Positions 5,954 to 40,524 of a DNA stretch of 40,524 bases are shown here, one piece after another; position 1 is the stretch's first letter, and each line of letters begins with the position of its first letter. The position numbers were made by a program, and so were the translations under genes. The DNA lies in contig JAEOTS010000089.1 in assembly GCA_016839745.1 (NCBI GenBank), forward strand, positions 1 through 40,524, given 5' to 3'. This DNA is from Promethearchaeota archaeon (GTDB lineage Archaea > Asgardarchaeota > Lokiarchaeia > Sigyniarchaeales > SOKP01). The notes beneath the pieces were generated by a model, which saw only the letters and a list, made by a program, of their open reading frames with translations, was not told the origin of the DNA and made no database searches.

Positions 5954-7888
5954 TTGAAAATGGGTAAAACTCTAACAGAAAAAATTATAGAATCACATTT
6001 AGTAGAAGGAACACTAGAACGAGGTTCTGATATAGCAATTACAATAAATCAGACGCTTACACAAGACGCAACAGGTACTATGGCCTATCTTCAATTCGAA
6101 GCAATAGGTATTGATAGAGTCCAAACGGAGCTTTCTGTAAGCTATGTCGATCATAATACGCTTCAAAGCGATTTTAAAAACCCAGATGATCATCGTTATC
6201 TCCAAAGTATTGCAGCCAAATATGGTATATACTTCTCACGACCCGGAAATGGCATCTGTCATCAATTACATCTTGAACGGTTTGCTCGACCCGGTCGAAC
6301 TCTTTTAGGTAGTGATAGTCATACACCAACGGGAGGTGGTGTTGGGAGTATTGCCCTCGGAGCAGGAGGTCTGGATGTTGCAGCCGCTATGGCAGGAGAA
6401 TCGTTTAGGTTAAAAATGCCGCAAGTAGTAAAAGTTTACCTAACTGGAAGTCTTCCAGATTTCGTTTCTGCTAAGGATGTAATTCTCGAAGTTTTGCGGA
6501 GAATTGGAGTAAAGGGCGCAAGATCCAAAGTTTTAGAATATACAGGTCCAGGAATAAAAACACTTTCAGTACCAGAGAGAGGAACCATTACAAACATGGG
6601 CACTGAAACTGGTGCTACTACATCAATTTTTCCTTCAGATGAGATTACTAAAGAGTTCTTAGAAGCACAAGAAAGAGGAGATCAATGGGTTGAGTTAAAA
6701 CCAGATGATGATGCGGTGTATGATGAAACTATCGAAATAAACCTAAGTGAACTTGAACCACTCATAGCTGAACCTCACAGCCCGGGTAATGTAAAAACAG
6801 TAAAGGAGCTTGAGGGATTAAAAGTAGATCAAGTTTGTGTTGGTAGCTGTACGAATTCTTCCCTTCGAGATCTCAAGATAACTGCAAACATTTTGAAAGG
6901 GAAGACAATTGATCTCAATACAGTGCTTACGGTTTCAGCAGGTTCAAGACAAGTGGTTGATCATATGATTACATCCGGTGAAATGGCCTATTTAATTGAA
7001 GCGGGTGCCCGAATTCTCGAAAACGCTTGTGGTCCTTGTATTGGGATGGGGCTTGCTCCTAAAACCGACGCTATATCTCTACGAACATTCAATCGGAATT
7101 TTCTTGGAAGGAGCGGAACTAAGAGTGCACAGGCATATCTTGTAAGCCCAGAAACTGCTGCTGTATCCGCTATTGAAGGAAAAATAACAGATCCAAGATC
7201 TTTTGGCGAATTACCCACATTTGACATGCCTAAAAAGTTCATGGTAAACGATAACATGATCGTACCACCTTTGCCTTCAGAAGAAGCAAAAAAAATTGAA
7301 ATTATCAGAGGTCCAAATATCAAACCATTACCTGAATTTAATCTCCTCCCCGACAAATTGGAAGGAGAAGTCCTTCTTAAAGTTGAGGATGATATAACTA
7401 CTGACCATATCATGCCAGCTGGAGCGAAAATATTGCCGTTAAGGTCTAATATCCCTGAAATTAGTAAGTTTGTCTTCAATGTAGTTGACGAGAGTTTTCC
7501 AGACCGATCTTTAGAGAGAGGGGGAGGATTTATTATCGGAGGGGAAAATTACGGACAAGGGAGTAGCAGGGAACATGCTGCAATCGCTCCCAAGTACCTA
7601 GGACTCAAGGCAGTGATAGTAAAATCGTTTGCTCGAATTCATTTGGCTAATCTTGTAAACTTTGGAATCGTTCCACTAACATTCGAAAATAAAGAGGATT
7701 ATGCTACCATCGAACAGGGAGATAAAATTGAAGTTGACCTATTAAGTTTAGAATCTGGAACGGTAGCGTTAAAAAATCTTACAAAAGGCACTGAAATCAA
7801 GTTAACTCATTCTTTAAGCGAGACAGAGATCGAAGTTTTAAAAGCTGGAGGGAAACTTCCTTTCATTAAGAAAAAACATTCCAAATAA
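5954..7888 (+). CDS. Aconitate hydratase, short single-chain (about 650 aa, Aquifex/archaeal type)
   Basis: 644 aa; TLTQDATGTMAYLQF, VDHN, GSDSHT, VGSCTNSS, ACGPCIGMG, RTFNRNF, ITTDHI, NYGQGSSREHAA with fused swivel domain. Start TTG 5954 or ATG 5960. Confidence 0.92.
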   Translation: MKMGKTLTEKIIESHLVEGTLERGSDIAITINQTLTQDATGTMAYLQFEAIGIDRVQTELSVSYVDHNTLQSDFKNPDDHRYLQSIAAKYGIYFSRPGNGICHQLHLERFARPGRTLLGSDSHTPTGGGVGSIALGAGGLDVAAAMAGESFRLKMPQVVKVYLTGSLPDFVSAKDVILEVLRRIGVKGARSKVLEYTGPGIKTLSVPERGTITNMGTETGATTSIFPSDEITKEFLEAQERGDQWVELKPDDDAVYDETIEINLSELEPLIAEPHSPGNVKTVKELEGLKVDQVCVGSCTNSSLRDLKITANILKGKTIDLNTVLTVSAGSRQVVDHMITSGEMAYLIEAGARILENACGPCIGMGLAPKTDAISLRTFNRNFLGRSGTKSAQAYLVSPETAAVSAIEGKITDPRSFGELPTFDMPKKFMVNDNMIVPPLPSEEAKKIEIIRGPNIKPLPEFNLLPDKLEGEVLLKVEDDITTDHIMPAGAKILPLRSNIPEISKFVFNVVDESFPDRSLERGGGFIIGGENYGQGSSREHAAIAPKYLGLKAVIVKSFARIHLANLVNFGIVPLTFENKEDYATIEQGDKIEVDLLSLESGTVALKNLTKGTEIKLTHSLSETEIEVLKAGGKLPFIKKKHSK

Positions 7889-7898
7889 ATTATTAGTT

Positions 7899-7925
7899 AA
7901 TTTTTTTTACTTATTTATTTTTATT
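7899..7925 (+). terminator. Oligo-T tract, putative archaeal terminator
   Basis: T8 run and further T-rich sequence directly after the aconitase stop. Confidence 0.4.
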
Positions 7926-7937
7926 CACTTGTGTTTT

Positions 7938-8769: not shown

Positions 8770-9354
8770 ATGAAAGTTGTTATTTTCAATTCAAGTCCTA
8801 GAAGCGAAGGTGTTACGAAAAAATGCTTGAATATTGTAATGGACGAGTTAAAAGCTGCTGGAATTGAAGTTGAATATATTTGGATGGGCATGGATAAAAT
8901 CCAAGGATGTATTTCATGTTACCGATGCAGAGAAAATCAAGATAAGAGATGTAGTGTCAAAACTGACAAATTAAACGAGTATTTAGAAAAGATGCTTAAC
9001 GCTGATGGAATAATATTAGGTTCACCAACTTATTTTGCAGACACTACTGCTCGAATGAAAGCGCTTATCGAAAGAGCTGGCCTTGTAAGTAAAGTGAATA
9101 ATAGCTTATTAAAACACAAAGTCGGTGCTTCTGTAGTTTCAGTTAGACGAGCGGGAGCAACCCATGTGTTTTCGAGTATGAATTATTTTTTCCTAATTAA
9201 CCAGATGTTTGTCGTTGGCTCAAGCTACTGGAATTTAGGGGTAAATCCACACGTTTCAGACCCAGATAGAATTATGGAAGACGAAGAAGGTATAGCTACT
9301 TTTCAGAATTTAGGAAGAAATATGGCTTACTTACTTCAAAAACTTAATGCTTAA
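8770..9354 (+). CDS. Iron-sulfur flavoprotein (Isf / flavodoxin-like FMN reductase family)
   Basis: 194 aa; NSSPR...T FMN-phosphate loop, compact CISCYRC-x7-C cluster motif, GSPTYF, RRAG. Confidence 0.88.
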   Translation: MKVVIFNSSPRSEGVTKKCLNIVMDELKAAGIEVEYIWMGMDKIQGCISCYRCRENQDKRCSVKTDKLNEYLEKMLNADGIILGSPTYFADTTARMKALIERAGLVSKVNNSLLKHKVGASVVSVRRAGATHVFSSMNYFFLINQMFVVGSSYWNLGVNPHVSDPDRIMEDEEGIATFQNLGRNMAYLLQKLNA

Positions 9355-9390
9355 TCTCTTTTTTTTTCTTTTAGGGCGTTCTTTTTGTTT
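9355..9390 (+). terminator. Oligo-T tract, putative terminator
   Basis: TCTCTTTTTTTTTCTTTT immediately after the stop codon. Confidence 0.5.
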
Positions 9391-9505
9391 AATAAAAATA
9401 TACTTTTTAAGCCAATATTTATTGTATTTATATTAGTGTTTTATAATTATATACTTGTAAAAGCATCGATATCAGCAAAGCATAAATCACTTGTAGGCAT
9501 CTAAA

Positions 9506-11866
9506 ATGAACGAAAGGATCAAGAAATTACGGAAACAGAGTCGCTCAGCAATTCCGTATCTTTCATTAGAACGTGCTTTATTAATAACAGAATTTTACAA
9601 GAAAGGAGTAGCTCAATTATATTCACCTCCAGTTACTAGAGCTAAAGCTTTTGAATATATACTGAAAAACAAAGAGATTTGTTTTAATGATGGCGAGTTA
9701 ATAGTTGGAGAACGCGGTCCGGAGCCAAAAGCGACTCCTTCTTACCCAGAAGTATGTTGTCATACATTAAAGGATTTAGAAATACTGGATTCTCGGGAAA
9801 AAATCTCTTTCCAGGTCCAAGAAGGTGTACGGCAAAACTCGAGAGACATCATCATTCCATTTTGGAAAGGTAAAACAATTAGAGAAAAAATCTTTTCTCA
9901 AGTCGATCAAGAGTGGCAAGATGCGTATAACGCGGGAATCTTCACTGAGTTCATGGAACAACGGGCTCCTGGACACACCGTAGCGGGTAAGAGTATCTGG
10001 ACAAATGGATTTTTAGATTTTAAAAAACAAATTCAGAATTCTATTGATAATTTGGATTTTTTCAAAGATCCCGACGCTTTCGCTAAGAGAGAACAGTTAA
10101 AAGCAATGGATATTGCTGCTGACAGTATAATAAGCTATGCAGAAGGACATTCTGAAAAAGCTCTAGAATTAGCTGAAGGAGAATCTAATCCAGAAAGAAA
10201 AAGAGAATTAGAAGAAATAGCCGAAATTTGCTCTCGTGTTCCAGCTAACGCTCCAAGGACGTTCTGGGAAGCTTTACAGCATTATTGGTTTATTCATCTA
10301 GGTGTTATTATAGAATATAATACTTGGGATGCTTTTAATCCTGGACGTCTTGATCAACATTTATACCCTTTTTATAAGAAGGATGTTTCTGATGGTATAT
10401 TAACAAAAGAGAGAGCCATCGAGCTACTTCAAGCCTTTTGGATTAAATTTAATAACCAACCAGCTCCTCCAAAGGTGGGAGTAACGGCAGAAGAAAGCGG
10501 AACTTACACAGATTTTTGCAATATTAATCTTGGAGGGTTAAAGGAGGACGGATCTGATGGAGTAAACGAACTATCTTTCATACTTTTAGATGTAATCGAA
10601 GAAATGAGAATACTACAACCTAGTAGTAATATTCAAATTAGCGAAAAAACCCCAGATAATTTTATTAAAAAAGCCCTTAAGATAATTAAAACAGGTTTCG
10701 GTCAACCCTCAGTTTTCAATGCAGATGCCATTGTCCAAGAACTAACGCGCCAAGGGAAATCCTTAATAGACGCTCGAAACGGTGGTGCTAGTGGGTGCGT
10801 CGAAACAGGAGCTTTTGGAAAAGAAGCATATATATTAACGGGGTACTTTAATCTTGTGAAGATATTTGAAGTTACTTTACATAACGGAGTCGAACCTTTA
10901 ACGGACAAACAAGTTGGATTAAAGACGGGAGAGCCTACTTCTTTCAAAACTTTTGACGAGTTATTAGAAGCGTATACAAAACAAATCAAGCATTTTGTTG
11001 ACATTAAAATAAAAGGTAATCTAATAATAGAGCGGATTTGGGCCCAAAATCCTTCCCCCTTTTTATCAATTATTATTGATGATTGTATCGAAAATGGAAA
11101 AGATTACAACGATGGTGGAGCAAAGTACAATACATCCTATATTCAGATAGTTGGTATGGGGAGTATAACTGATTGCTTAGCTTCTTTAAAATATAATGTT
11201 TATGACAACAAAATTTATACTATGGAAAAAATGCTCGAAGTGCTTAATAATAACTTCGAAGGATTTGAGGAAATAAGACAAAAACTTGTATCTAGAACAC
11301 CTAAATATGGGAACGATAAAGATTACGCAGACTCTATTACCCAACAAATTTTCGAGATCGTATATAGTGCTATTGATGGGCGTCCGAACACCAGAGGAGG
11401 AGTGCACAGAATAAACCTACTTCCTACAACTGTCCACATTTATTTTGGAAAAGTTACTGGTGCCACACCAGACGGTAGAAAAGCATATACGCCTTTATCT
11501 GAAGGAATCTCGCCTGTACAAGGAATGGATATTAATGGCCCAACCTCTGTTATAAAATCCGCTGCTAAAATTGACCATCTTCGAACTGGGGGAACATTAT
11601 TAAATCAAAAATACTCACCCAAATTCTTTTCGAGCGAATCAGGGATTAATAATGTAGCTCATTTGATACGCTCCTATTTTAAAATGGGAGGTCATCACAT
11701 TCAATTTAACGTAGTTTCGGTAAATACTTTGCGTGCTGCTCAAAATGATCCGGCACAATATCATAATCTAATAGTACGCGTTGCGGGATATAGCGATTAT
11801 TATATCAATCTAGGAAAAGATTTACAAGACGAAATAATTAAAAGAACTGAACATATCTCAGTTTAA
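9506..11866 (+). CDS. hypD: Glycyl radical enzyme, trans-4-hydroxy-L-proline dehydratase type
   Basis: 786 aa; RVAGY glycyl loop, SGCVE thiyl loop, and HypD-characteristic segments MEQRAPGHT, WDAF-PGRLDQHL, FNNQPAPPKVG...ES-TYTDF, KEAYILTGY, LPTT-HIYFG. Confidence 0.85.
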   Translation: MNERIKKLRKQSRSAIPYLSLERALLITEFYKKGVAQLYSPPVTRAKAFEYILKNKEICFNDGELIVGERGPEPKATPSYPEVCCHTLKDLEILDSREKISFQVQEGVRQNSRDIIIPFWKGKTIREKIFSQVDQEWQDAYNAGIFTEFMEQRAPGHTVAGKSIWTNGFLDFKKQIQNSIDNLDFFKDPDAFAKREQLKAMDIAADSIISYAEGHSEKALELAEGESNPERKRELEEIAEICSRVPANAPRTFWEALQHYWFIHLGVIIEYNTWDAFNPGRLDQHLYPFYKKDVSDGILTKERAIELLQAFWIKFNNQPAPPKVGVTAEESGTYTDFCNINLGGLKEDGSDGVNELSFILLDVIEEMRILQPSSNIQISEKTPDNFIKKALKIIKTGFGQPSVFNADAIVQELTRQGKSLIDARNGGASGCVETGAFGKEAYILTGYFNLVKIFEVTLHNGVEPLTDKQVGLKTGEPTSFKTFDELLEAYTKQIKHFVDIKIKGNLIIERIWAQNPSPFLSIIIDDCIENGKDYNDGGAKYNTSYIQIVGMGSITDCLASLKYNVYDNKIYTMEKMLEVLNNNFEGFEEIRQKLVSRTPKYGNDKDYADSITQQIFEIVYSAIDGRPNTRGGVHRINLLPTTVHIYFGKVTGATPDGRKAYTPLSEGISPVQGMDINGPTSVIKSAAKIDHLRTGGTLLNQKYSPKFFSSESGINNVAHLIRSYFKMGGHHIQFNVVSVNTLRAAQNDPAQYHNLIVRVAGYSDYYINLGKDLQDEIIKRTEHISV

Positions 11867-11908
11867 ACTTAATAAAAAGAATAGTATTAATAGAAAATTA
11901 ATAATATA

Positions 11909-14590
11909 TTATTGTTTTTCTCTAAGCATATTTCTTAATACTGTGTGTAATATCCCAAGATTTTGATAATATTCGAGATCAACCTTATTATCGAGTCGAA
12001 CAATAACATCAAATAAAATTTCTTCCCCATTTTTCTTTATTGCGCTCACAGTTAATTCAGATAAAGGTGTCATATTCTTAACTCCAGAAATACTCACAGT
12101 TTCGGTTCCATCCAAACCTAAATTTGCTGCATTTTCCCCATCTTTGAACTGTAGTGGTAAAACTCCCATGCCTACTAAATTACTTCTATGAATTCTTTCA
12201 AAGGATTCAGCGATTACTGCTTTCACTCCTTGGAGTTGAGTTCCCTTAGCAGCCCAGTCTCGTGAGCTCCCCATACCATAGTCTGTTTTTGCGATAACGA
12301 TTAAAGGTGTTTCAGAAGCGATGTATTTCATAGCCGCATTATAAATTGGCATAACTTCCCCAGTTGGATGATATTTTGTCCAACCTCCTTCTCGATCGAC
12401 GAGAAGATTCCTAATTCTTATGTTTCCAAACGTGCCTCTTGCCATTACCTGATCATTCCCTCTCCTTGACCCAAAAGAATTAAAATCTTTAGGTTCAATC
12501 CCTTTCGAGATTAAATATTTTCCTGCGGGCATATCTTCTGGAATCACTCCTGCAGGAGAAATGTGATCAGTAGTGACGCTTTCTCCCAACAGAGCAAGAA
12601 TTCTAGCGTTCTTTATATCTGTTAGGGGAGGTTTATCAAGAGGAAAATCCATGAAGAAAGGAGGCTCTCTAATATAAGTAGAATCATCTTCCCATTGATA
12701 TACGTTATCTTTTGATGGGTTTAAATCATTCCATAATTCCCATCCTTTAAATATTTCTCCGTATTCCTTATTGAATTGCTCAGGATTGACATTATTCATG
12801 TAAATTTGTTGACACTCATCATGAGAGGGCCAGATATCCTTAAGATATACGGGATTTCCATTTGAATCCAACCCCAAAGGTTCAGTATCCAAATCAATTG
12901 CGACAGTGCCAGCTATTGCGTAGGCGACTACTAAGGGGGGTGATGCTAAATAATTCGTTTTAGTATATGGACTTATTCTACCTTCGAAATTGCGGTTACC
13001 ACTAAGAACGGAAGCAACAACAAGGTCATTATTATCGATTTCTTTTATAATATCACCAGAAAGCGGTCCACTATTTCCAATGCAAGTAGTACAACCATAC
13101 CCAACAATGTTAAATCCTAATTTTTCCAAATAAGGTAATAATCCCGCACTTTCTAGATAATCTCTGACTACTCGGGATCCAGGAGCAAAGCTGGTTTTTA
13201 CATGTTTCTTAACTTTCAAACCTTTTTCAACAGCAGCTTTCGCAATCATTCCTGCTCCAACCATAACCGAAGGGTTGGAAGTATTTGTGCAAGATGTGAT
13301 TGCCGCGATAACTACTGAACCATGTTTTAACTTGTCTGAATCAATATCGGCTAATTTATCTAAATCATCTGGTTTAGCAAAAGAAGTTTTTAGTTGGTGG
13401 GAAAATTCCTTCTTCATGTCTTTAAGAGATATTCTATCTTGTGGTCTCTTTGGTCCCGCTAAACTAGGTTCTATCTCAGTTAAGTTAATTTCTACTACTT
13501 CACTATAATTTGGAGTTGGCAAGTTTGCATCGTAAAAAAGACCTACTTTTTTTAAGTAACTTTTTACAAATTCAGCGTGTTCTTTATTACGACCACTTAA
13601 TAGGAGATAATCTATTGTATTGTCATCAACAGGAAAGAATCCCATCGTAGCTCCGTATTCGGGAGACATATTTGCGATTGTCGCTCGATCGGGCAATTTC
13701 AATTGATTAAGGCTTGGTCCATAAAATTCGACAAATTTACCGACTACACCGTGTGCTCTAAGAATTTGGGTTATCGTAAGAACAATATCAGTGGCAGTAA
13801 TTCCATCTTGAGGTTCACCAATTAATTTAACTCCAACTACCTCAGGGATATTCATATAATACGGTTGACCTAATATAACTGCTTCGGCCTCAATACCACC
13901 AACACCCCAGCCTAGAACACCTAATCCATTAATCATGGTAGTATGTGAGTCGGTACCTACTAGAGTATCGGGAAACGCATACTTTTCTCCTTTATGTTCC
14001 CTTAACTGGACAACAGAGGCGAGATATTCTAAATTTACCTGATGACATATTCCTCTACTAGTAGGAACTACGCGAAAGTTGTTAAAAACAGTTTGAGCCC
14101 ACTTTAAAAATACATAGCGCTCGTAATTTCGCTCAAATTCTTTCTCTTCGTTCAATTTGAGTGCTTCATTTGTCCCATAATAGTCAACTTGGATTGAATG
14201 GTCAATAACTAAATCTACTGGGATGATAGGGTTAATCTTATTAGGATCTCCTGCTGCTCTTTTTACAGCTGATCTTAAAGCCGCTAGATCAACAACAGCG
14301 GGCACGCCTGTGAAGTCTTGAAGTAATACTCTTGATGGTTTATAAGGAATTTCTTTTTTATCCTTTTGATTTGGTACCCATTTTGAGAGTGCAAGGAAAT
14401 TCTCTTCAGTTACAACTTCTCCATCTAAGTTTCGGATTACATTCTCTAATAACACCCTTATAGAATAGGGTAATATCTCTATGTCTCCAAAACCAAGGTC
14501 CTTTAATTTTTTGAGGTTATAAATCGATGCAGTATCGTCTTTAATGTTAATTTTTTCCCTTAAATTGTTCTGGATTTCTGTTATACTCAT
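11909..14590 (-). CDS. acnA: Aconitate hydratase A (AcnA / IRP1 family)
   Basis: 893 aa; RVLLQDFTGVPAVVDLAA, DLVIDHS, GTDSHTTM, AAITSCTNTSNP, GYGCTTCIGNSG, SGNRNFEGR, GSSRDWAAKG. Confidence 0.97.
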   Translation of the reverse strand: MSITEIQNNLREKINIKDDTASIYNLKKLKDLGFGDIEILPYSIRVLLENVIRNLDGEVVTEENFLALSKWVPNQKDKKEIPYKPSRVLLQDFTGVPAVVDLAALRSAVKRAAGDPNKINPIIPVDLVIDHSIQVDYYGTNEALKLNEEKEFERNYERYVFLKWAQTVFNNFRVVPTSRGICHQVNLEYLASVVQLREHKGEKYAFPDTLVGTDSHTTMINGLGVLGWGVGGIEAEAVILGQPYYMNIPEVVGVKLIGEPQDGITATDIVLTITQILRAHGVVGKFVEFYGPSLNQLKLPDRATIANMSPEYGATMGFFPVDDNTIDYLLLSGRNKEHAEFVKSYLKKVGLFYDANLPTPNYSEVVEINLTEIEPSLAGPKRPQDRISLKDMKKEFSHQLKTSFAKPDDLDKLADIDSDKLKHGSVVIAAITSCTNTSNPSVMVGAGMIAKAAVEKGLKVKKHVKTSFAPGSRVVRDYLESAGLLPYLEKLGFNIVGYGCTTCIGNSGPLSGDIIKEIDNNDLVVASVLSGNRNFEGRISPYTKTNYLASPPLVVAYAIAGTVAIDLDTEPLGLDSNGNPVYLKDIWPSHDECQQIYMNNVNPEQFNKEYGEIFKGWELWNDLNPSKDNVYQWEDDSTYIREPPFFMDFPLDKPPLTDIKNARILALLGESVTTDHISPAGVIPEDMPAGKYLISKGIEPKDFNSFGSRRGNDQVMARGTFGNIRIRNLLVDREGGWTKYHPTGEVMPIYNAAMKYIASETPLIVIAKTDYGMGSSRDWAAKGTQLQGVKAVIAESFERIHRSNLVGMGVLPLQFKDGENAANLGLDGTETVSISGVKNMTPLSELTVSAIKKNGEEILFDVIVRLDNKVDLEYYQNLGILHTVLRNMLREKQ

Positions 14591-14599
14591 ATACTCAAT

Positions 14600-15847: not shown

Positions 15848-15867
15848 ATTTGAGTTACCATATTTTC

Positions 15868-15896
15868 TAATTAAAACCTTAAACTACCTTAAAGTA
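15868..15896 (-). promoter_or_regulatory. Conserved upstream element with TATA-like TACTTTAAG, citrate synthase paralog 1
   Basis: 24/29 identical to 17277-17305 and at the same distance (21 nt) from the ATG. Confidence 0.6.
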
Positions 15897-16008
15897 AAAA
15901 AGAAAGATATATATTTCTTAAGCTTTTAAATAATTAATTTTGAGAAGAAATAGGAGAAAGCACGCAAAAAAGGATATTAGAATTACACGATTAATATTGA
16001 AAAATGAA

Positions 16009-17256: not shown

Positions 17257-17276
17257 GATTTAGATACATTATTTGA

Positions 17277-17305
17277 TAATTAAATCCTATTACTAGCTTA
17301 AAGTA
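17277..17305 (-). promoter_or_regulatory. Conserved upstream element with TATA-like TACTTTAAG, citrate synthase paralog 2
   Basis: 24/29 identical to 15868-15896 with the same spacing to the start codon. Confidence 0.6.
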
Positions 17306-17424
17306 GAGTGGTAAAATAAATATTTCCACAAAAAATACGAGAAACTATACAAAAAAAGAGAATTTTCTGTTTTAATTAAAAATATTTCATATTATAAGAT
17401 ATTTTACTATTCAACCAGATTTTT

Positions 17425-30083: not shown

Positions 30084-30153
30084 TATATTTGTCAATAAGA
30101 AATTTTCAAATGTAATAATTTTCCAAAAAAAAATAAAAAATATTGATGATAAT

Positions 30154-31635: not shown

Positions 31636-31708
31636 TAATCTTGAAGAGTTCATTTCACCTAAAGTTTTTACCATCGGTTTGTTTTCTTAAATGCACTTTT
31701 GGTAAGCA

Positions 31709-33133
31709 TCATAAACCTAATTCCCGTAATTTTCGAGTAACTTCTTGTTTTTTGGTACCTTTCAGATCGTACCACTTATAAAAAATTAACGCACCCACGC
31801 AGCAAACAATGAAAGGAATTAATCCTTGTATTATCCGCAGACCTAGTAAAGCTTCAAAAGGAGGAGGAATAATGTCCGGGTTATAATGTGTGAGTGTGTA
31901 TATAATTGCGATTATAAAACTCTGAATCGTTACGGAAATTCGAATGAAAACATTCCTAATTCCAATTAATGTAGTCTGTTGATGTTTTTTTATTTTCACA
32001 GCGATTTCATCGTAGCAATCGGCAAAAACGGGCGATAACATTATTAAGAACGAGGATCCTGATACTCCGTTAAGGATGCTGATTAAATAGTATTGAAAGG
32101 CATCTACAATAAAAATGTTAAATAATAAACTTACTCCGTAGAAAGCTAAACCTATTGTATATGTTTTCGAGTGGCCTATTTTTTTAGCTATACGAGCCCA
32201 TATAGGTATTGTTATAAATGAAGATAGAAGCATTATAATTGAACCTATGCTTCTTATATATTGTCCCTCTTGCAGAACATCATCAACAAAGTTGACTGTA
32301 TTCATGCTCATAAGACCAAAAGAAATCATGAATGTAAGATAAGAGAATACAGCTAACATGAAATTTTTTTGTTTTAAACATATTTTCATAGTTTTTAAAA
32401 AGGATATTTTATCCGAGTCGTCATGCCCTACGCTAAATCTTTCTTTTATTACACTATCCTCTTTAGCTCCCGGTATAAATACCGCAAATGAAAATAAGAG
32501 AATAATAACGCTGATAAAAGCAGCGATTGTGAACGATGTTGGATTTCCGGGAACAATTACTTGGGACCAGATTGTAATTGCTAAGAAATTTGCTATAAAT
32601 GTGAAAATTTGTGTCAATACTCCTCCTTTTCTACGATTTTTATCTCCTCTAAAATGAGCAGCAAAAGCTCCAAAAGAATGAGTTTGAAGAAGAGAATACG
32701 ATAAATCGTATAATAATACGATTATTATATAGTAGATTAGAATGGGCAAAACGCTCTCAATTCCTGTTACTTGAGGAGGTGTAAATAGGAAAAAAAATAG
32801 AATAATCGTGAAAATCCCTCCAATTATGATCCATGGAGTATGAAACCCTCGCTTTTTGGTCCATTTGAAGGGTCTATCGGTAAGATATCCCATTACAGGA
32901 TTAATCAGCATACTCCATATTGTGTATATGGCATTTGCGATTGCCATATATATATACCATAAACCTTCTATACTTCTTAAACCAAGTTGGTCTGCATAGA
33001 ATGTCCAGACAAAATTATTAAAGGCTACCATCAAAAAAATATTCAAAAAATATCCAGTTGAAAACATTACCATTTTTGTAAGACTTGGCTCTTCAGGTTG
33101 AGCCGGCTTCACATCATTATTTAAGGTTGTCAT
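31709..33133 (-). CDS. MFS transporter, glycoside-pentoside-hexuronide (GPH/MelB-like) family
   Basis: 474 aa, about 12 hydrophobic segments; NPVMGYLTDR...RGFHTPWI, FADCYDE, C-terminal YDL. Confidence 0.85.
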   Translation of the reverse strand: MTTLNNDVKPAQPEEPSLTKMVMFSTGYFLNIFLMVAFNNFVWTFYADQLGLRSIEGLWYIYMAIANAIYTIWSMLINPVMGYLTDRPFKWTKKRGFHTPWIIIGGIFTIILFFFLFTPPQVTGIESVLPILIYYIIIVLLYDLSYSLLQTHSFGAFAAHFRGDKNRRKGGVLTQIFTFIANFLAITIWSQVIVPGNPTSFTIAAFISVIILLFSFAVFIPGAKEDSVIKERFSVGHDDSDKISFLKTMKICLKQKNFMLAVFSYLTFMISFGLMSMNTVNFVDDVLQEGQYIRSIGSIIMLLSSFITIPIWARIAKKIGHSKTYTIGLAFYGVSLLFNIFIVDAFQYYLISILNGVSGSSFLIMLSPVFADCYDEIAVKIKKHQQTTLIGIRNVFIRISVTIQSFIIAIIYTLTHYNPDIIPPPFEALLGLRIIQGLIPFIVCCVGALIFYKWYDLKGTKKQEVTRKLRELGL

Positions 33134-33303
33134 ATTTTTTTTCAGAGATGATTCTTGATATTATGTTATTCGTTCTATTATTTATTAAAGTATTCAATCA
33201 AAAAGCTATAATATATAATATAGTGTATTGATTCAAATTATAGTGGTTAAGTAAATTTCTTTAAAAATAAAATATAACTTCCCAGAAAAAAAGAAAAATT
33301 TTG

Positions 33304-33660
33304 ATGACAAATAAAGTAAAAGTGATTAAATCTCATCATTCAGATGTTTCGATTCCTTTTCAAGCTGAAAAGGGTGAGATTGTCATTGGTAAAGAAAAAC
33401 CTACTCAATGGGAAGGATGGCTCTATTGCAAAACTAAGGATGAAATTTATGGTTGGGTCCCTAAAGCCTTCCTTACTCCAGTAAAGGAATCAACTGAAGA
33501 GTTCCAGTTCATCCGTACTTATAATGCATTTGAGATCTCAGCAACAGAGGGAGAATTTGTCAAAATAAAAGAAATAGAAAGTGGATGGGCAAAGATCGAA
33601 AATGAAAGTGGAAAAATAGGATGGATTCCGTTAGAAAATCTCGATTATATTGAAGTTTAG
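33304..33660 (+). CDS. Small protein composed of two tandem SH3 domains
   Basis: Two repeats of G-E-x-V...GW...GW(V/I)P...L (KGEIV..EGWLYC..YGWVPKAFL; EGEFV..SGWAKI..IGWIPLENL); no signal peptide. Confidence 0.85.
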   Translation: MTNKVKVIKSHHSDVSIPFQAEKGEIVIGKEKPTQWEGWLYCKTKDEIYGWVPKAFLTPVKESTEEFQFIRTYNAFEISATEGEFVKIKEIESGWAKIENESGKIGWIPLENLDYIEV

Positions 33661-33666
33661 AATAAT

Positions 33667-35022
33667 TTAGAAAAAACCAATTTGTTCCTGCAGATTTCGA
33701 TACAACTCAGATAGAGTAGGATGTGCGTGGATTAGTTGTCGGAATATGGATAAACCATTTGGGAGATAAATAAGAGGAAGAATTTCATGGATTAAAATAT
33801 CTGCTCCTTCTCCAATAATGTGGCATCCTAATATTTGGTCTTTGTTATTATAGAGTAATTTCATGATACCACGCTTAAGTTTCATTAAATGAGCTCTAGA
33901 ATTTTTTGGAAAAACGGTTTGAACAACATTGTATTCAACTCTATCCTCTCTTAATTGTTGCTCTGTTTTTCCTACTGAACCAATAGGAGGTTCCGTGAAC
34001 ACCGCGTAAGGTATATTTTCAAAGGTAACAGGAATTTTAGTTTCGTTGAACATATTATGAACTACTATTTTAGATTCCCTTAAAGCCATGTGAGTAAATT
34101 GTGTTTTACCTAATATATCTCCAATCGCGTAAATGTTAGGTTTAGTGGTCTGAAGAAATTCGTTAACGATGATATTGCCTCTCGCATCTGTTTCAACACC
34201 GGCAGCGTTTAAATTAAGTCCTTCTGTATGTGCTAGAAAACCCGTTGACAACATGACTTTTTCTACTTCGATTTTATCTCCCTTATTTGTTTCTACGAGA
34301 ATTTTATCTGATATTTTTGATACTTTTGAGGTACGTGAGTTAGAATAAAAGACTATACCATCCTCCTCATAATACGTTTTAATTGCTGATGATACTGCTT
34401 CATCCGCTGAAAAGATAGGGAGAGGGTTTGTATCAATGATGTATACTTTACTTCCGAAGCTGTTAAATACATTCGCAAATTCCATGGAAATAAATCCACC
34501 TCCTACAAACGCTATTGATTTAGGAATTTTTTCAAGATTAAATATAGTTTCGTGAGTTAAATAATCAACACTGTCAATTCCTTCAATTGGTGGTATAAAT
34601 GGTTTTGTTCCAGTGGAGATTAAGATATTGGTCGTTGTGTGAACTTCATTTCCTACTTCAACAGATGACTCGCTTATGCAATGACCCTTTTCCTTTATGT
34701 AGTCAACATTTTTGAATTCCGCTATTTGATTTTCATTATCTTCTATTGCATCGCGTACCAATTTGTTAGTATATTCAAGCACTTTCTTAAAATTCAATTT
34801 TATATTTGTTAATTCAACACCAAAATTCTCCGCTTTAAGAGCAAGTTTATACAGATGGGCAGCGTATATCATCGCTTTAGCGGGGATACAACCGTTTTCT
34901 ATGCATTTTCCACCTAAGGCACCGTCGCCTATCAAAAGCACATTCTTTCCATACCCGGCGGCTATTTTAGCAGATGGAAAACCAGAAGTACCCGCACCAA
35001 TAATTATTAAATCGTAGTGCAA
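33667..35022 (-). CDS. Class I pyridine nucleotide-disulfide oxidoreductase (dihydrolipoamide dehydrogenase-like)
   Basis: 451 aa; GAGTSG, LGGKCIENGCIPAK redox disulfide, GGGFISMEFA, YAIGD, HAHPTLSE; no C-terminal Cys pair. Confidence 0.85.
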   Translation of the reverse strand: MHYDLIIIGAGTSGFPSAKIAAGYGKNVLLIGDGALGGKCIENGCIPAKAMIYAAHLYKLALKAENFGVELTNIKLNFKKVLEYTNKLVRDAIEDNENQIAEFKNVDYIKEKGHCISESSVEVGNEVHTTTNILISTGTKPFIPPIEGIDSVDYLTHETIFNLEKIPKSIAFVGGGFISMEFANVFNSFGSKVYIIDTNPLPIFSADEAVSSAIKTYYEEDGIVFYSNSRTSKVSKISDKILVETNKGDKIEVEKVMLSTGFLAHTEGLNLNAAGVETDARGNIIVNEFLQTTKPNIYAIGDILGKTQFTHMALRESKIVVHNMFNETKIPVTFENIPYAVFTEPPIGSVGKTEQQLREDRVEYNVVQTVFPKNSRAHLMKLKRGIMKLLYNNKDQILGCHIIGEGADILIHEILPLIYLPNGLSIFRQLIHAHPTLSELYRNLQEQIGFF

Positions 35023-35311
35023 TCTTGGAATCCCTCTTTTAATTTTATTGTTCTAAGTATTTAGAATATTATTATCGTGTTAATCATTTAAATTAATTGC
35101 TTATTATCTATAAAGTGCCCAGTTGGGCTCAAAACCAGATCCACTTTAATTTAAGTCGTACTTATCCTTGAAAAATTTAATGCAATTGCCCAACAAAAGG
35201 GAAAAGAATCCCATATTAATCATGTAGGTAAAATTTTTATTAAAGTTGAGTTTACCCTTATTATTAATCTTTGACATAACATTAAAAATAAAAGAAGAGA
35301 ACGAGAGAAAA

Positions 35312-36607
35312 TTGGCTCAAAAAAATATTTATGAGTACGATGCTAAAAAGCTTATTGCGAGCGAATTACCAAAATATTATCCGGATTTTAATTATCATAA
35401 CAAGTTAGTGGTAGTTGACTGCGAGACTGATTTAGAAAAAACAATTTCAGATAATTCGTGGATAAATACAGAAAAAGTAGTAGTTAAACCGGACCAGCTT
35501 TTTGGAAAAAGAGGGAAGGCAAATTTACTTTTACTAGATGCAAACTGCGACGAAATGAAAGATTTCTGTTATAGTAATTTAGATAGAGTTTGCGAGATTG
35601 GAAATGTGAGGGGTGCGTTGAAACGCCTACTTGTAGAACCTTTCATCCCTCACGAGAAAGAATATTATGTATCTATAACAACTGAAAGAGACGGCGATGT
35701 CATCCATTTCAGTTTTGAAGGTGGCATTTTCGTAGAAGAAAATTGGGATAAGGTTATTCACATACCAATACCCATAGGAATGGATATTAACTCATTCGAT
35801 TTAGCGAGTAAAATGCCGGATTTAGGAGATTCTAAAAATGTCTTAATTCCGTTTATTAAGGGACTTTATCGGGTTTTTGTTGATCAGGATTTTACTTTTC
35901 TTGAAATCAATCCATTCGCAATCACTGAAGATAATAAAGTTGTTCCTTTAGATGTCAAAGCTAGATTAGACGATACTGCGATGTTTCTTCACGCAGATAC
36001 ATGGGGAAATCCTAACAACCCAATCGAGTTTCCAGCTGCTTTTGGACAGATCATGTCTGAAAAAGAAGCGTACATAAGGGAATTAGACGAGAAAACGGGA
36101 GCTTCTCTGAAATTGAAGGTTTTAAATCCCGTTGGTCGAGTTTGGACAATGGTAGCTGGAGGGGGTGCTTCAGTTATCTATACAGACACGATTGTTGATT
36201 TGGGATATGGAAACGAGCTAGGAAATTACGGAGAGTATTCTGGGAACCCATCACGAGAACATACCGAAATTTATGCTCAAACGATAATTGATCTTATGAC
36301 AGAAACCCCCGATCTCGCGGGGAGATCAAAGTATCTCATAATTGGTGGAGGAATTGCAAATTTCACAGATGTAAAAGCCACTTTTACTGGAATTGTTGGT
36401 GCCATCAAGAATTCGGTTGAAAAACTGAAAAAAGCTAAAGTCAAAATTTATGTGCGAAGAGGAGGACCTAACGAAAAGCAAGGTCTGGAACTAATGAAGC
36501 AAGTAGGGAAAGAAACCGGAATTCCTTTAGAAGTGTATGATAGATATACTCATATGACAAGGGTTGTCGATTTAATAAAACAAGCAGAAGAAACAGGAGG
36601 GGCTTAA
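35312..36607 (+). CDS. aclB: ATP-citrate lyase beta subunit (ATP-grasp plus citrate-binding domain)
   Basis: Probable TTG start 35312 (MAQKNIYEYDAKKL); VVKPDQLFGKRGK, LEINPF, VWTMVAGGGASVIY, NYGEYSG, GGGIANFT, VRRGGPN. Confidence 0.93.
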   Translation: MAQKNIYEYDAKKLIASELPKYYPDFNYHNKLVVVDCETDLEKTISDNSWINTEKVVVKPDQLFGKRGKANLLLLDANCDEMKDFCYSNLDRVCEIGNVRGALKRLLVEPFIPHEKEYYVSITTERDGDVIHFSFEGGIFVEENWDKVIHIPIPIGMDINSFDLASKMPDLGDSKNVLIPFIKGLYRVFVDQDFTFLEINPFAITEDNKVVPLDVKARLDDTAMFLHADTWGNPNNPIEFPAAFGQIMSEKEAYIRELDEKTGASLKLKVLNPVGRVWTMVAGGGASVIYTDTIVDLGYGNELGNYGEYSGNPSREHTEIYAQTIIDLMTETPDLAGRSKYLIIGGGIANFTDVKATFTGIVGAIKNSVEKLKKAKVKIYVRRGGPNEKQGLELMKQVGKETGIPLEVYDRYTHMTRVVDLIKQAEETGGA

Positions 36608-36608
36608 A

Positions 36609-38444
36609 TTGGAAGATTACGAACTATTTAATAGAAATACTCAAGCAATTATTTACGGATTTCAGAGGAATCCAATTCAAAGAATGCTTGATTTCGATTT
36701 TGTTAGTAAGAGAGAAAAACCGTCAGTAGCAGCAATAATTAGACCTACTCAAACAGCTGCGATTAGTTATCATAAAGTATTTTATGGTAGTACAGAAATC
36801 GTTGTACCGATATATAAAACGCTTGAATTAGCAATGAAAAAACATCCGAATGCCGATGTGATGATAAATTTCGCTTCATTTAGATCTTCCTATGAAACGA
36901 GTAAAGAAGCTCTTGAATCTAATACAATTAGAACTGTTGTAATCATAGCCGAGGGTATTCCTGAAAGATTAAGTCGAGATTTAATCAAAATCGCAAACGA
37001 GAGAAATAAAAATATTATCGGTCCAGCTACCGTAGGGGGAATTGTAGCGGGGGCTTTTAAGATAGGAAATACAGCGGGAACACTTGAAAATATAAGACTT
37101 TCCAAGCTTTATCGTCCAGGATCCGTTGGATTCGTATCAAAGTCAGGTGGTTTAAGCAACGAAATGAACTTTATGATAAGCCAAACAACAGATGGCATAT
37201 ACGAGGGCATTGCTATAGGCGGGGATCGCTTTCCTGGTTCGAAATTAATCGATCATCTCATGCGATACGAAGCAAATCCCAAAATTAAAATGCTAGTAGC
37301 ATTAGGTGAGATTGGTGGAACCGACGAATATGCGATAGTGGATAGACTAAAAAGCGGGAAAATAACAAAACCGATAGTTGTGTGGGTAACTGGAACAGCA
37401 GCAAAGATTCTTCCTAAAGGATTACAGTTTGGTCACGCAGGAGCTATGGCAGACAGTTCAAAGGAGACTGCTGACGCAAAAAACCGAGCGTTAAGAGAAG
37501 CTGGTGCTATTGTCCCTGACTCGTACGAAGATTTAGACAAAGAAATTAGAAAAACATTCGATAAACTAAAACAAGAGGGTAAAATACCTCCTATTGAGGA
37601 TTTCGAACCTCCAGAAGTTCCATTAGATTTTAACACAGCTGTGAGGCTAGGGAAAGTAAGAAGACCAACCGATGTTATAGTAACTATATCTGACGATAGA
37701 GGGGATGTACCTACTTTTGCTGGTGTTGGATTAGATACAATTATTAAAAATAATAAATCAATTGGATATGTAATAGGGTTATTGTGGTTTAAAAGAGAAT
37801 TACCCTCTTTTGCACAAGATTACATTGAAATGGTTATCAAATTGACAGCTGACCACGGTCCAGCAGTTTCAGGCGCTCACAATGCAATCATCACAGCCCG
37901 CGCAGGTAAAGATTTGATGGCTTCACTTGCGGCAGGAATTCTTACTATCGGCCCGAGGTTCGGTGGAGCAATTTCAAACGCTGCAAAATACTTTAGAGAA
38001 GCCTTACAACAAGGAATGACTCCGTTAGAATTTATGGGATATATGAAAAATGTAGTCAAAATTAATATCCCTGGTATTGGACATAGAATAAAATCTGTTC
38101 AAAATCCTGATGTCAGAGTCCAGTTATTAAAGGAGTTTGTGCTTAAAAATTTTGAAAAACATCCTCACCTCGATTACGCTTTAGAAGTTGAAAAACTTAC
38201 TACATCCAAAAGAAATAACCTTATCCTCAATGTGGACGGTTGTATCGGAATTTGCTTTCTTGATTTATTAGAGAATCTAGATTTTACTAAAGAAGAAATT
38301 GAAGATGTAATCCATAGTGAAGCGTTGAATGGTCTTTTCGTGCTTGGGCGATCAATCGGAATGATGGGGCATGTATTTGATCAGAAGCGTCAGAGAGCTG
38401 GGTTATTCCGACAACCTTGGGACGAGATTCTGTTCACCGATTAG
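36609..38444 (+). CDS. aclA: ATP-citrate lyase alpha subunit (CoA-binding, phospho-His and citryl-CoA lyase domains)
   Basis: 611 aa; QRMLDFD, NFASFRS, IGPATVGG, QFGHAGA, ADHGPAVSGAHN, PGIGHR, LILNVDG. Confidence 0.95.
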   Translation: MEDYELFNRNTQAIIYGFQRNPIQRMLDFDFVSKREKPSVAAIIRPTQTAAISYHKVFYGSTEIVVPIYKTLELAMKKHPNADVMINFASFRSSYETSKEALESNTIRTVVIIAEGIPERLSRDLIKIANERNKNIIGPATVGGIVAGAFKIGNTAGTLENIRLSKLYRPGSVGFVSKSGGLSNEMNFMISQTTDGIYEGIAIGGDRFPGSKLIDHLMRYEANPKIKMLVALGEIGGTDEYAIVDRLKSGKITKPIVVWVTGTAAKILPKGLQFGHAGAMADSSKETADAKNRALREAGAIVPDSYEDLDKEIRKTFDKLKQEGKIPPIEDFEPPEVPLDFNTAVRLGKVRRPTDVIVTISDDRGDVPTFAGVGLDTIIKNNKSIGYVIGLLWFKRELPSFAQDYIEMVIKLTADHGPAVSGAHNAIITARAGKDLMASLAAGILTIGPRFGGAISNAAKYFREALQQGMTPLEFMGYMKNVVKINIPGIGHRIKSVQNPDVRVQLLKEFVLKNFEKHPHLDYALEVEKLTTSKRNNLILNVDGCIGICFLDLLENLDFTKEEIEDVIHSEALNGLFVLGRSIGMMGHVFDQKRQRAGLFRQPWDEILFTD

Positions 38445-38447
38445 AGG

Positions 38448-38466
38448 GTTTTTTTTTTATTTTTTG
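38448..38466 (+). terminator. Oligo-T tract after aclA
   Basis: T11-A-T6 directly after the aclA stop, between convergent genes. Confidence 0.55.
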
Positions 38467-39246
38467 TTAATTATCATTATCCTTTTTTTCTTCATATCCT
38501 GAACCATAAGGTAAACCAAATATTCCCTTCTTGATCATAGGAGCGTGAAAGATACCTTTAGCCCATGGAGCAGGAAATTTTTGAGCAATAGCTGATGAAA
38601 CTAATGCAACTATAAAGATTAAAATAAATAGCATATAATTTCCCCATAATGTAAGATAACCCAAACTTATAGTCACATTAGGTAGATGACAGACGATAGT
38701 TTTAACCATAATCGATCTAGGTGTGTCATGCTCGGGACTTACATAAATATCCCAGAAATAAGCTTGGATTAGAAATTGCCATATTCCAATACAGACATAG
38801 CTTAAAAGGTAGATTACCCAAGAAGGGAAACCTGTTAAACTCCAAAGGTGATAAAATGACAGAACCAGCCCACCCGTACTAAATCCCCAAATTAGGCCAA
38901 ATACGGTTTCGGGACCGAGACTATATTTTCTATCGAATGTTAGAGTGCTTCGAGGCCAGATAATCACATACGCTACTACTACATAAATATAGCAAATGAC
39001 TAGATATAATATCCAAAATGGATTAGAAACCTGCTCCGCGGTGAATATCGGTCTTATAATTATTTGTTCTAGCGTACCTGAGGCGGCAATAAATATGTTG
39101 CAGAAAGAGAAATAGATAAATGCTCGGTTCCATGCAGCAGCCGGCTTCCAAACATTAATTGGAAGCTTTATAAATTTAAAAATGTAAATTCCTACCAAAA
39201 TTCCACCGAGAATGGCAAAAGAGATTATATAGCCAAGTATAAACAT
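38467..39246 (-). CDS. Hypothetical integral membrane protein (about 7 TM)
   Basis: 259 aa, strongly hydrophobic; polar motif YFWDIYVSPEHD...CHLPN. Confidence 0.75.
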   Translation of the reverse strand: MFILGYIISFAILGGILVGIYIFKFIKLPINVWKPAAAWNRAFIYFSFCNIFIAASGTLEQIIIRPIFTAEQVSNPFWILYLVICYIYVVVAYVIIWPRSTLTFDRKYSLGPETVFGLIWGFSTGGLVLSFYHLWSLTGFPSWVIYLLSYVCIGIWQFLIQAYFWDIYVSPEHDTPRSIMVKTIVCHLPNVTISLGYLTLWGNYMLFILIFIVALVSSAIAQKFPAPWAKGIFHAPMIKKGIFGLPYGSGYEEKKDNDN

Positions 39247-39451
39247 TTTAAACCTCGAAAAAGTAATTCAGTATTTAATCTGAAACGGTTTTATTTCTTA
39301 AATTAATATATTGATCCCTTTATTTTAAATCTCGGGGAGAAATATGGGAGAAACTAAGGCTATTTTCGATATATACAAATTTTTTAAGAGATTAGAAATT
39401 CAAATTATTATCAAAAATAACTATTAAATTTTTCAAAATGTGATGAAACTC

Positions 39452-40524
39452 ATGAGTAAATCGAATGAAAAAATAATCTACACAATTGTGGATGAAGCCC
39501 CACGGTTAGCTACCTACTCTTTCCTCCCAATTGTGAAAAAATTCGCGAGTGCAGCAGGAATCCGCGTAGAAACAAGGAATATTTCTCTGGCGGGTCGAAT
39601 TCTCGCAAATTTCCCGGAATATTTGACAGAAGAACAAAAACAATCCGATGATTTGAAGGAGATTGGAGTTCTGGTTAAAAAACCCGAAGCTAATATCATT
39701 AAACTTCCAAATATTAGTGCTTCAATCCCACAAATTAATGCAGCTGTTAAAGAACTCCAAGAAAAGGGATATAATGTCCCCGATTATCCAATTGATCCGA
39801 AAACCGATGAAGAAAAGGCGATCCTGAAGAAATTTAATATTGTGAAGGGAAGTGCTGTAAACCCAGTAACACGCATGGGAAATTCAGATAGGAGAGTTCC
39901 TGGACCAGTCAAAAATTTTGCGAAAAAAAATCCGCATTCTATGGGTATTTGGAGAAAAGACTCCAAATCTCATGTAGCTACCATAAAGGAAGGTGACCTA
40001 AGATCAACCGAAATCTCAACTACCATTACAGAACAAACGGCAGGCAATGCAACCATTGAATTTATCGACACTACGGGTCAGAAAACAGTTTTGATGGACA
40101 GATTGGCTTTAATTCCAGGTGAAATCATAGATGCTTCTACAATGAGCAAGAAATTGCTTAGATCATTCTTGGAAGAACAGATCAAAGATGCTAAAGAACA
40201 GGATATTTTATTTTCGGTTCATCTGAAGGCAACCATGATGAAGGTCTCCGATCCAATCATATTCGGCCATGTTGCATCGATCTATTTCAAAGATGTATAT
40301 GAAAAATATGCAGAAACCTTCAAACAGCTTGCAATTAGCCCTCGAAATGGTCTGGGTGAACTATACGCTAAAATTAAAGAATTACCCTCTGAGAAGCAAA
40401 AAGAAATTATTGATGATATCGAGGCTTGCTACGCGACTCGACCAAGATTAGCGATGGTAGATTCTGACAAAGGGATAACCAATTTACATGTCCCCTCCGA
40501 TGTGATTATCGATGCATCAATGCC
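39452..40524 (+). CDS. icd: Monomeric NADP-dependent isocitrate dehydrogenase, truncated by window edge
   Basis: Not in the ORF track. Hand translation: [28 protein letters not shown]...[13 protein letters not shown]...[11 protein letters not shown]...[16 protein letters not shown]...[19 protein letters not shown]...[25 protein letters not shown]. Confidence 0.95.

Follow-up and report, generated by a model that had tools for sequence, protein, structure and literature searches.

Citrate Synthase and ATP-Citrate Lyase in a Lokiarchaeial Tricarboxylic Acid Gene Neighborhood That Has Lost korAB and sucCD

INTRODUCTION

Strict anaerobes such as methanogens have a branched (horseshoe) tricarboxylic acid (TCA) pathway, in which an oxidative arm leads to 2-oxoglutarate, a reductive arm leads to succinate, and the two arms are not linked. 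The reaction of ATP-citrate lyase (ACL) is close to equilibrium, and in Desulfobacter postgatei the enzyme was reportedly found by Moeller, Schauder, Fuchs and Thauer in 1987 to be citrate forming and ATP yielding. For the Asgard archaea of the Lokiarchaeia, a 2018 preprint by Bulzu et al. describes a complete set of TCA genes with isocitrate dehydrogenase (IDH), 2-oxoglutarate:ferredoxin oxidoreductase, and ACL, in which sdhC/D are lacking and malate dehydrogenase is only of the COG2055 type, and interprets this set as serving autotrophic CO2 fixation (bioRxiv 10.1101/385732). ACL in Asgard archaea has also been discussed in three further reports (PMC6646929; bioRxiv 10.1101/2022.10.25.513756; PMC11976288), the last two of which do not place it as the sister of eukaryotic ACL. 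The cultured relative Promethearchaeum syntrophicum MK-D1 is an amino-acid-degrading syntroph (PMC7015854). Here, we analyzed the 40,524-nucleotide contig JAEOTS010000089.1 of a Promethearchaeota archaeon (assembly GCA_016839745.1), called the window below, in which genes for citrate synthase (CS) and ACL lie in one neighborhood of TCA genes, and we compared this locus with the systems above and with the genomes of relatives.

RESULTS

The window carries intact genes for both CS and ACL, a coexistence that a preliminary description of this DNA had proposed. Genes were called from an open reading frame (ORF) map together with Pfam and NCBIfam profile scans, and scores are given against the curated cut-off of the model concerned. 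G000 denotes the source metagenome-assembled genome (MAG), other G numbers denote genomes of relatives, and C and L numbers denote contigs and loci. ACL is encoded as two subunits of the archaeal/eukaryotic type, AclB and AclA (35246-38444, + strand; PF16114, PF24948, PF00549, and PF00285). AclB has the ATP-grasp and citrate-binding domains (PF24948, 223 bits versus a cut-off of 83; PF16114, 257 bits), and AclA has PF02629, PF00549, and PF00285 as well as a GHAGA phospho-histidine loop at residue 280. AclA matched solved ACLY chains over its full length, the citryl-CoA lyase domain included. Its best matches among solved structures were Methanosaeta (Methanothrix) concilii ACLY-A/B and human ACLY (6hxi, 6znw, and 6hxh), with 773 bits for the M. 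concilii ACLY-B and 735 bits for the human enzyme, whereas the Chlorobium-labelled chain 6hxj_B matched much more weakly (430 bits). Like the M. concilii enzyme, the ACL of the window consists of two subunits and is not the fused eukaryotic chain.

The two citrate synthases, CS1 (14600-15847, - strand; PF00285; TIGR01800, 445 bits versus 421) and CS2 (16009-17256, - strand), are 74% identical, and the catalytic motifs GPLHGGA, GFGHRVY, and NVDLYS are intact in both. The CS and ACL units are separate, lie in opposite orientations, and are 18 kb apart. In a tree of 30 CS sequences, CS2 grouped with genera g13, g17, and g18, and CS1 grouped with g12, g16, and other g1 sequences (support of 97/89 and 91/86 for the two groupings). 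This placement of the copies in different family-level clades rules out a recent tandem duplication, and CS1 and CS2, which are both present in G002 and G008, are old paralogues. Because 2-methylcitrate dehydratase PrpD (PF03972) was not found in G000, G008, or G002, it is unlikely that the second CS is a methylcitrate synthase.

The other TCA genes named in the preliminary description were likewise recovered by Pfam and NCBIfam models, namely two aconitases, FumC, SdhAB, and a monomeric IDH of which the window has the 5' part. One aconitate hydratase is a short single-chain protein of 644 amino acids (5954-7888, + strand) that scored 976 bits versus 612 with NF005558 (PRK07229) and 953 versus 719 with TIGR01342, and the other is an AcnA-type protein of 893 amino acids (11909-14590, - strand; TIGR01341, 1363 bits versus 945). 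The monomeric NADP-dependent IDH (39440-40522, + strand; PF03971) is cut by the contig end, which leaves residues 1 to 361; it is 92% identical to a 748-amino-acid protein of G008, and residues 644 to 748 are found at the end of contig C128. SdhB and SdhA, the Fe-S and flavoprotein subunits of a succinate dehydrogenase/fumarate reductase (22852-25337, - strand), were above the cut-offs of TIGR00384 and TIGR01812. No membrane anchor gene lies beside them. A 232-amino-acid ORF next to sdhA was considered as the missing anchor and rejected, since it has no predicted helix, belongs to no family, and is not conserved in position in G008. True SdhA orthologues were present in 10 of the 40 relatives searched.

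The C4 genes between sdhAB and the CS genes follow the order of the reactions. The fumC gene (18501-19880, - strand; PF00206 and PF10415) encodes a class II fumarase/aspartase family lyase, which scored 557 bits versus 665 with TIGR00979 and 505 versus 510 with the aspartase model PRK12273. Twenty base pairs past fumC and ahead of the CS genes begins a gene for a member of the flavin mononucleotide (FMN)-dependent 2-hydroxy-acid dehydrogenase family with a Cys-rich N terminus (17425-18480, - strand; PF01070), in which SNHGGR and VKG motifs can be aligned with lactate oxidase. The order sdhAB, fumC, FMN dehydrogenase, gltA, acnA thus places the FMN gene in the malate dehydrogenase slot, and the adjacency of fumC and the FMN dehydrogenase gene is kept in at least 10 relatives (G008, G002, G018, G024, G030, G034, G080, L051, L060, and L064). 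A malate dehydrogenase of the LDH/MDH family (PF00056) had no match in the MAG. Two tandem Ldh_2-family (COG2055) genes on another contig (G000:C109:661-2976; L114) are other malate dehydrogenase candidates; their best NCBIfam match is L-sulfolactate dehydrogenase, below the cut-off.

When the cluster proteins were compared with the whole MAG by tblastn, CS, ACL, FumC, SdhB, AcnA, and IDH had no further copy elsewhere. All detectable TCA genes of the organism lie on about 1% of its DNA, a concentration that is far above chance and that recurs in relatives.

Next to these genes, the window has lost two enzymes that relatives keep. In G008 and G080, korAB, which encodes a two-subunit 2-oxoacid:ferredoxin oxidoreductase (OFOR), lies directly upstream of sdhAB, and sucCD lies between MFS and SH3 genes beside aclBA (OAFO_sf, 586 bits versus 483 for korAB; 382 versus 336 for SucD). 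In both genomes, this one locus encodes a complete cycle. In the window, korA and korB codons 1 to 209 are deleted. The last 80 codons of korB and its original stop remain as a pseudogene (27728-27967, - strand), which was found by tblastn with G008 KorB (residues 210 to 289, 70% identity, E 9e-35). The order ZnR-korA-korB-sdhA of G008 is replaced by ZnR, the korB remnant, a sulfatase gene, the 232-amino-acid ORF, and sdhA. At the place that sucC-sucD occupies in G008, G047, and G080, the MFS gene of the window is separated from the SH3 gene by a 167-bp spacer (33134-33300), in which no sucCD remnant was found. Across the MAG, no protein except AclA matched TIGR01019 (SucD) over the cut-off, and tblastn with the G008 SucC and SucD proteins found no match. 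Independent Logan contigs of three of the public runs described below span both the korB-remnant and the sucCD-spacer junctions. In G014, the relative whose AclA is closest, sucCD is likewise missing from its place between MFS and SH3 (L009). The korB remnant, the absence of sucCD, and the FMN dehydrogenase in the malate dehydrogenase slot go beyond what the preliminary description had recorded.

The genome therefore has no dedicated enzymes linking 2-oxoglutarate to succinate. Because korAB is gone and sucCD was not found in the MAG, the switchable closed cycle that had been proposed from the sequence is unsupported here. For the reductive cycle, intact AclBA would provide citrate cleavage, and for the oxidative cycle, CS, aconitase, IDH, fumarase (just below its curated cut-off), and succinate dehydrogenase are all present. 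Succinyl-CoA synthetase, which both cycles would use, was not found in the MAG, which is 89% complete. The oxidative cycle is further interrupted by the loss of korAB from the cluster, and a heme-copper oxidase (COX1) was not found in the MAG by a PF00115 search. OFORs of unassigned substrate remain: the MAG has five to seven others, among them one of two subunits on C46 (OAFO_sf) and others of four subunits on C77, C112, C21, and C80, with NCBIfam matches at the subfamily level only. It also has at least seven ADP-forming acyl-CoA synthetase-like (ACD) genes.

Part of the neighborhood is an operon in relatives. The genes acnS-aclB-aclA-icd form one compact operon in MK-D1, Lokiarchaeum ossiferum, several Thor-labelled MAGs, and others. 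In MK-D1, L. ossiferum, and Thor MAGs, aclB has the short aconitase gene directly upstream of it, and icd directly follows aclA in the first two. Identities of the window's proteins to those of MK-D1 and L. ossiferum are 62 to 64% for the short aconitase, 63% for AclB, 76 to 78% for AclA (78% to MK-D1 and 76% to L. ossiferum), and 75 to 80% for IDH. However, the four genes are compact in those two genomes, whereas in the window the aconitase gene is 27 kb off, a membrane protein gene separates aclA from icd, and an accessory block is present. The short aconitase is the one that belongs to the conserved acn-aclBA-icd core, from which it has been moved by 27 kb. In MK-D1, genome searches found no CS, Sdh orthologue, SucD-like gene, or CdhC. 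The preliminary description had taken ACL as the marker of the reductive cycle; because the lyase module stands alone in the amino-acid fermenter MK-D1, ACL in this lineage cannot be taken as marking a reductive cycle.

Among 151 Lokiarchaeales genomes, ACL was found in 90 and CS in 42. Both enzymes occur together in 21, against about 25 expected if they were independent, while 69 have ACL without detectable CS, 21 have CS without ACL, and 40 have neither. A mutual exclusion of CS and ACL, hinted at by the first 41 genomes, was dropped at 151 genomes on these counts. In 10 of the 20 other genomes with both enzymes, which belong to three genera, CS and ACL lie on the same contig, 4 to 43 kb apart. 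One of the relatives is the MAG AMARA_1 of Bulzu et al. (G034), in which a 43-kb contig (SDNX01000010) holds aclBA, sdhAB, fumC, the FMN dehydrogenase gene, CS, and acnA together, as here. The preliminary description had considered that such a cluster might already be a documented common arrangement, and this largely holds: the gene set was published in 2018 (bioRxiv 10.1101/385732), and a linked cluster is present in at least 10 other genomes of three genera.

Loss is not confined to the window. The congener G047 keeps sucCD but lacks acnA, CS1, and the FMN dehydrogenase, and at G047:C4 (L137), around 96256-96760, only three sdhA fragments remain beside the 232-amino-acid gene. They match window positions 23625-23721, 23800-23841, and 24975-25337. 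Succinate dehydrogenase genes have thus decayed independently in G047, and erosion of the cluster is general in the genus. In addition, sucD-like genes beside aclBA have an in-frame stop (TGA or TAA) in G002 (C112:114755-115477), G009 (C423:2940-3659), and G019 (C100:9034-9774), which may represent additional decay or, in the case of TGA, selenocysteine.

The source organism is an anaerobic lokiarchaeial Asgard archaeon, in agreement with the anaerobic Asgard host suggested earlier. The window is the whole of contig C56 of G000 (3.53 Mb, 192 contigs, 32% GC, 89% complete, and 5.8% contaminated). The nearest AclA and CS relatives in a search of 185,579 species genomes were all Promethearchaeota/Lokiarchaeia MAGs. 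The MAG encodes the CdhC subunit of CODH/ACS (CO dehydrogenase/acetyl-CoA synthase), glutamate dehydrogenase (GDH), and GTP-dependent phosphoenolpyruvate carboxykinase (GTP-PEPCK); malic enzyme was not found in it by a PF00390 search. The preliminary description had also pointed to oxygen-sensitive enzymes nearby, and these are present as a glycyl-radical enzyme (GRE) inside the region 5954-40524 and an HGD-D family pair just outside it. For the right half of the window, 90 to 95% of the sampled words were present in four public runs, all marine-sediment metagenomes of one study. The listed public runs included no RNA run.

The possibility of a bacterial or chimeric contig, raised in the preliminary description, was not borne out. 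Because the whole window is collinear (reversed) with 60 kb of the 274-kb contig G008:C26 of a sister species (isolate CSMAG_616), a stretch that begins with GH2 and the HGD-D pair and ends with IDH, the contig is neither bacterial nor a gross chimera. It is also partially collinear with G002, G015, G047, and G080. Nevertheless, contig depth changes sharply at position 25487. Logan contig depth over 25487-40524 was about 55-, 30-, 19-, and 9-fold in the four runs (with local gaps in X3 and X4), was less than 1-fold over 21000-25486 in the same runs, and contigs of three runs stop exactly at 25487, as would be expected if two related populations had been joined near 25.4 kb and CS and ACL did not belong to one genome. 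We consider such an assembly artifact highly improbable. In G047, which comes from another study, continuous DNA homology (86%) to window positions 24975-26186 runs across 25487 and holds an sdhA 5' remnant beside the same 232-amino-acid gene and sulfatase; this continuity and the collinearity of G008 make a chimera unlikely. Both halves of the window are similarly distant from G008 and G002 (about 84 to 93% amino acid identity), the tetranucleotide profiles of five 8-kb segments fit the genome no worse than those of other contigs, and CS and ACL share a contig in the 10 other genomes mentioned above. A search for repeats at the junction found none. Moreover, the four runs were picked by the right half of the window only, and about 70% of each was read. 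We take the join at 25487 as real. The dominant strain in those sediment samples may differ to the left of 25487, and the step may reflect strain heterogeneity, with the sdh-to-acn block linked or not linked to the ACL block.

The remaining genes of the neighborhood are shared with relatives to varying extents. The HGD-D family pair (2-hydroxyacyl-CoA dehydratase/benzoyl-CoA reductase/double-cubane; 2746-5241, - strand; PF06050 in both), for which all NCBIfam equivalogs were below the cut-off, is a conserved flank of the cluster that has the same position in G008, G018, and G047. The GRE (9506-11866, + strand) is of the trans-4-hydroxy-L-proline dehydratase (HypD) type (NF043068, 1293 bits versus 1100), has the RVAGY and GCVE motifs, and has an 89%-identical orthologue at the same spot in G047 and none there in G008. 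Four additional paralogues of the GRE, along with two GRE activases, are encoded on other contigs of the MAG. Between fumC and sdhB lies a gene for a pyruvate-oxidase/acetolactate-synthase-like thiamine pyrophosphate (TPP) enzyme with an N-terminal rubredoxin (21028-22815, + strand), assigned from the Pfam rubredoxin and three TPP domains, with all NCBIfam models below the cut-off and orthologues in the same place in G008, G002, and G080. The 232-amino-acid protein without a family (25422-26120, - strand) and the sulfatase (+ strand) together span 25422-27721, occupy the korAB place of relatives, and as a pair also adjoin the sdhA remnants of G047. Beside aclB is a dihydrolipoyl-dehydrogenase-like flavoprotein disulfide reductase (33667-35022, - strand; Pfam; TIGR01350, 358 bits versus 409), which often adjoins this gene, being in the same place in G008, G002, G019, L012, L032, L036, and L046. 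The gene between aclA and icd (38467-39246, - strand) encodes a conserved membrane protein of no family with four predicted helices; its orthologues in relatives are 70 to 77% identical, and the insertion between aclA and icd occurs in this genus only.

DISCUSSION

With moderate confidence, we read this locus as a partly eroded Lokiarchaeales TCA neighborhood that now serves a branched organic-acid network and not a reversible cycle. The gene identities, synteny, deletions, and distribution are observed; the flux directions and substrates below are inferred, and flux direction cannot be read from DNA. The neighborhood consists of two layers. The core, made up of the short aconitase, AclBA, and the monomeric IDH, links acetyl-CoA and oxaloacetate with 2-oxoglutarate, and the acn-aclBA-icd set occurs widely among Asgard archaea of the Loki and Thor types. 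The accessory block comprises korAB-sdhAB, fumC-FMN dehydrogenase, gltA-acnA, and sucCD, and is kept in some species only. In the organism studied here, the C6 branch is kept redundantly (two CS, two aconitases, IDH, and ACL), and the C4 branch is kept as the fumarase/aspartase, the FMN dehydrogenase, and the anchorless SdhAB. The host would be a heterotroph and strict anaerobe, equipped with the Wood-Ljungdahl pathway as well, and these enzymes would form a branched organic-acid hub. Glutamate-family amino acids, including hydroxyproline via the clustered HypD, may enter at 2-oxoglutarate, from which IDH, aconitase, and ACL would lead to acetyl-CoA and oxaloacetate. ACL would be the reversible, ATP-coupled enzyme that cleaves citrate during the breakdown of glutamate-family amino acids, and CS would be the irreversible synthetic entry. 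With sugars or the Wood-Ljungdahl pathway as the source of acetyl-CoA, CS, or ACL running in reverse, could provide 2-oxoglutarate. The second arm would lead from oxaloacetate or aspartate to succinate, where the soluble SdhAB is probably a fumarate sink. CS and ACL would need separate regulation, since running both at once does no more than burn ATP.

Several observations weigh against this reading. SdhA carries an HSGAAQGG motif, the Gln of which is the residue of the E. coli succinate dehydrogenase type and not the Glu of fumarate reductase, a weak hint against a role as a fumarate sink. A copy of sucCD or korAB could lie in DNA missing from the 89%-complete assembly, and the remaining OFORs and ACD-like genes might stand in for the enzymes that were lost, which would close the cycle. 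Given the depth drop to the left of 25487, the dominant strain may lack the sdh-to-acn block beside the ACL block.

The alternatives differ mainly in the role that they give to ACL. In a closed bidirectional or reductive TCA cycle, ACL, an OFOR paralogue, an ACD-type ligase, and fumarate reductase would fix CO2, and CS would serve the oxidative direction. All of the other steps are encoded, the sister genomes G008 and G080 have the complete set within a single cluster, the additional OFORs and ACD-like genes offer possible substitutes, and Bulzu et al. interpret the lokiarchaeial set as a reverse TCA cycle (bioRxiv 10.1101/385732). We nevertheless regard a closed cycle as unlikely in this organism. 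The dedicated korAB and sucCD are deleted, CODH/ACS is already available for CO2 fixation, MK-D1 retains ACL although it lacks the other parts of the cycle, the lyase belongs to the Methanosaeta/eukaryote type and is distant from the Chlorobium-labelled 6hxj_B, and the accessory block is being lost repeatedly in the genus, as the sdhA remnants of G047 illustrate. If ACL instead worked mainly in the citrate-forming, ATP-yielding direction, CS would be redundant, which would explain its loss in most relatives. The near-equilibrium reaction, the 69 genomes with ACL and no detectable CS, and the joining of ACL to aconitase and IDH in the core operon are consistent with this, and D. postgatei, a sulfate-reducing bacterium with a closed oxidative cycle, would be a precedent for an ACL that need not mark the reductive direction, although there is no evidence of respiration here. 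However, the two intact CS genes argue that CS is not redundant here, and amino-acid fermentation fits citrate cleavage equally well; we find this account improbable as well. A related view, which we think doubtful, is that ACL is the main reversible citrate enzyme of Lokiarchaeia, that CS and the rest of a once complete one-locus cycle are dispensable and being lost, and that this genome stands midway, having both citrate enzymes but lacking the link from 2-oxoglutarate to succinate. Citrate would then be formed with a gain of ATP when the Wood-Ljungdahl pathway supplies ample acetyl-CoA and be cleaved during the fermentation of glutamate-family amino acids.

Two further proposals concern the surroundings of the citrate enzymes and their bearing on eukaryotes. 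The gene content of 8770-22815 (FumC, AcnA, CS, the FMN dehydrogenase, the rubredoxin-fused enzyme, and an FMN reductase) could make the accessory block an oxidant-tolerant module for transient exposure to oxygen, and FumC and AcnA are the oxidation-resistant isoenzymes of E. coli. A GRE within the same block, the HGD-D pair beside it, and the failure of the PF00115 search to find a heme-copper oxidase make this very unlikely. The eukaryote-like CS/ACLY arrangement put forward in the preliminary description, a citrate-to-acetyl-CoA shuttle ancestral to the eukaryotic one, draws on the AclA score to human ACLY, which nearly equals that to Methanosaeta ACLY-B, and on the position of Asgard archaea as the closest relatives of eukaryotes. 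Such a shuttle needs two compartments and a citrate carrier, and in a single compartment CS and ACL would only hydrolyze ATP. Furthermore, published trees group eukaryotic ACL with DPANN and Thermoplasmatota and not with Asgard archaea (PMC11976288; 10.1101/2022.10.25.513756), and eukaryotic CS has been traced to other donors (PMC11976288). We therefore give this proposal almost no credence.

Compared with described systems, the locus favored here as an eroded neighborhood has the two unlinked arms of the horseshoe pathway, but in this case the split came about through a visible deletion from a full cycle at one locus, and CS and ACL are both part of the C6 arm. It shares IDH, ACL, SdhAB without sdhC/D, and a COG2055-type malate dehydrogenase with the set of Bulzu et al., whose preprint, in the passages found by keyword search, makes no mention of clustering or erosion, whereas here the cluster has lost korAB and sucCD and has two CS. 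In the cited literature we came upon no account of the clustering, the CS/ACL tallies, or the erosion; they are refinements and not a new kind of system.

The metabolism of Asgard archaea feeds models of eukaryote origin, and Asgard ACL is often cited as evidence of CO2 fixation by the reverse TCA cycle. Taken together, our results hold three lessons for this lineage: the lyase module stands alone in MK-D1, the full cycle is one cluster in some species, and that cluster is eroding in others. They caution against scoring a reverse TCA cycle as present from marker genes.

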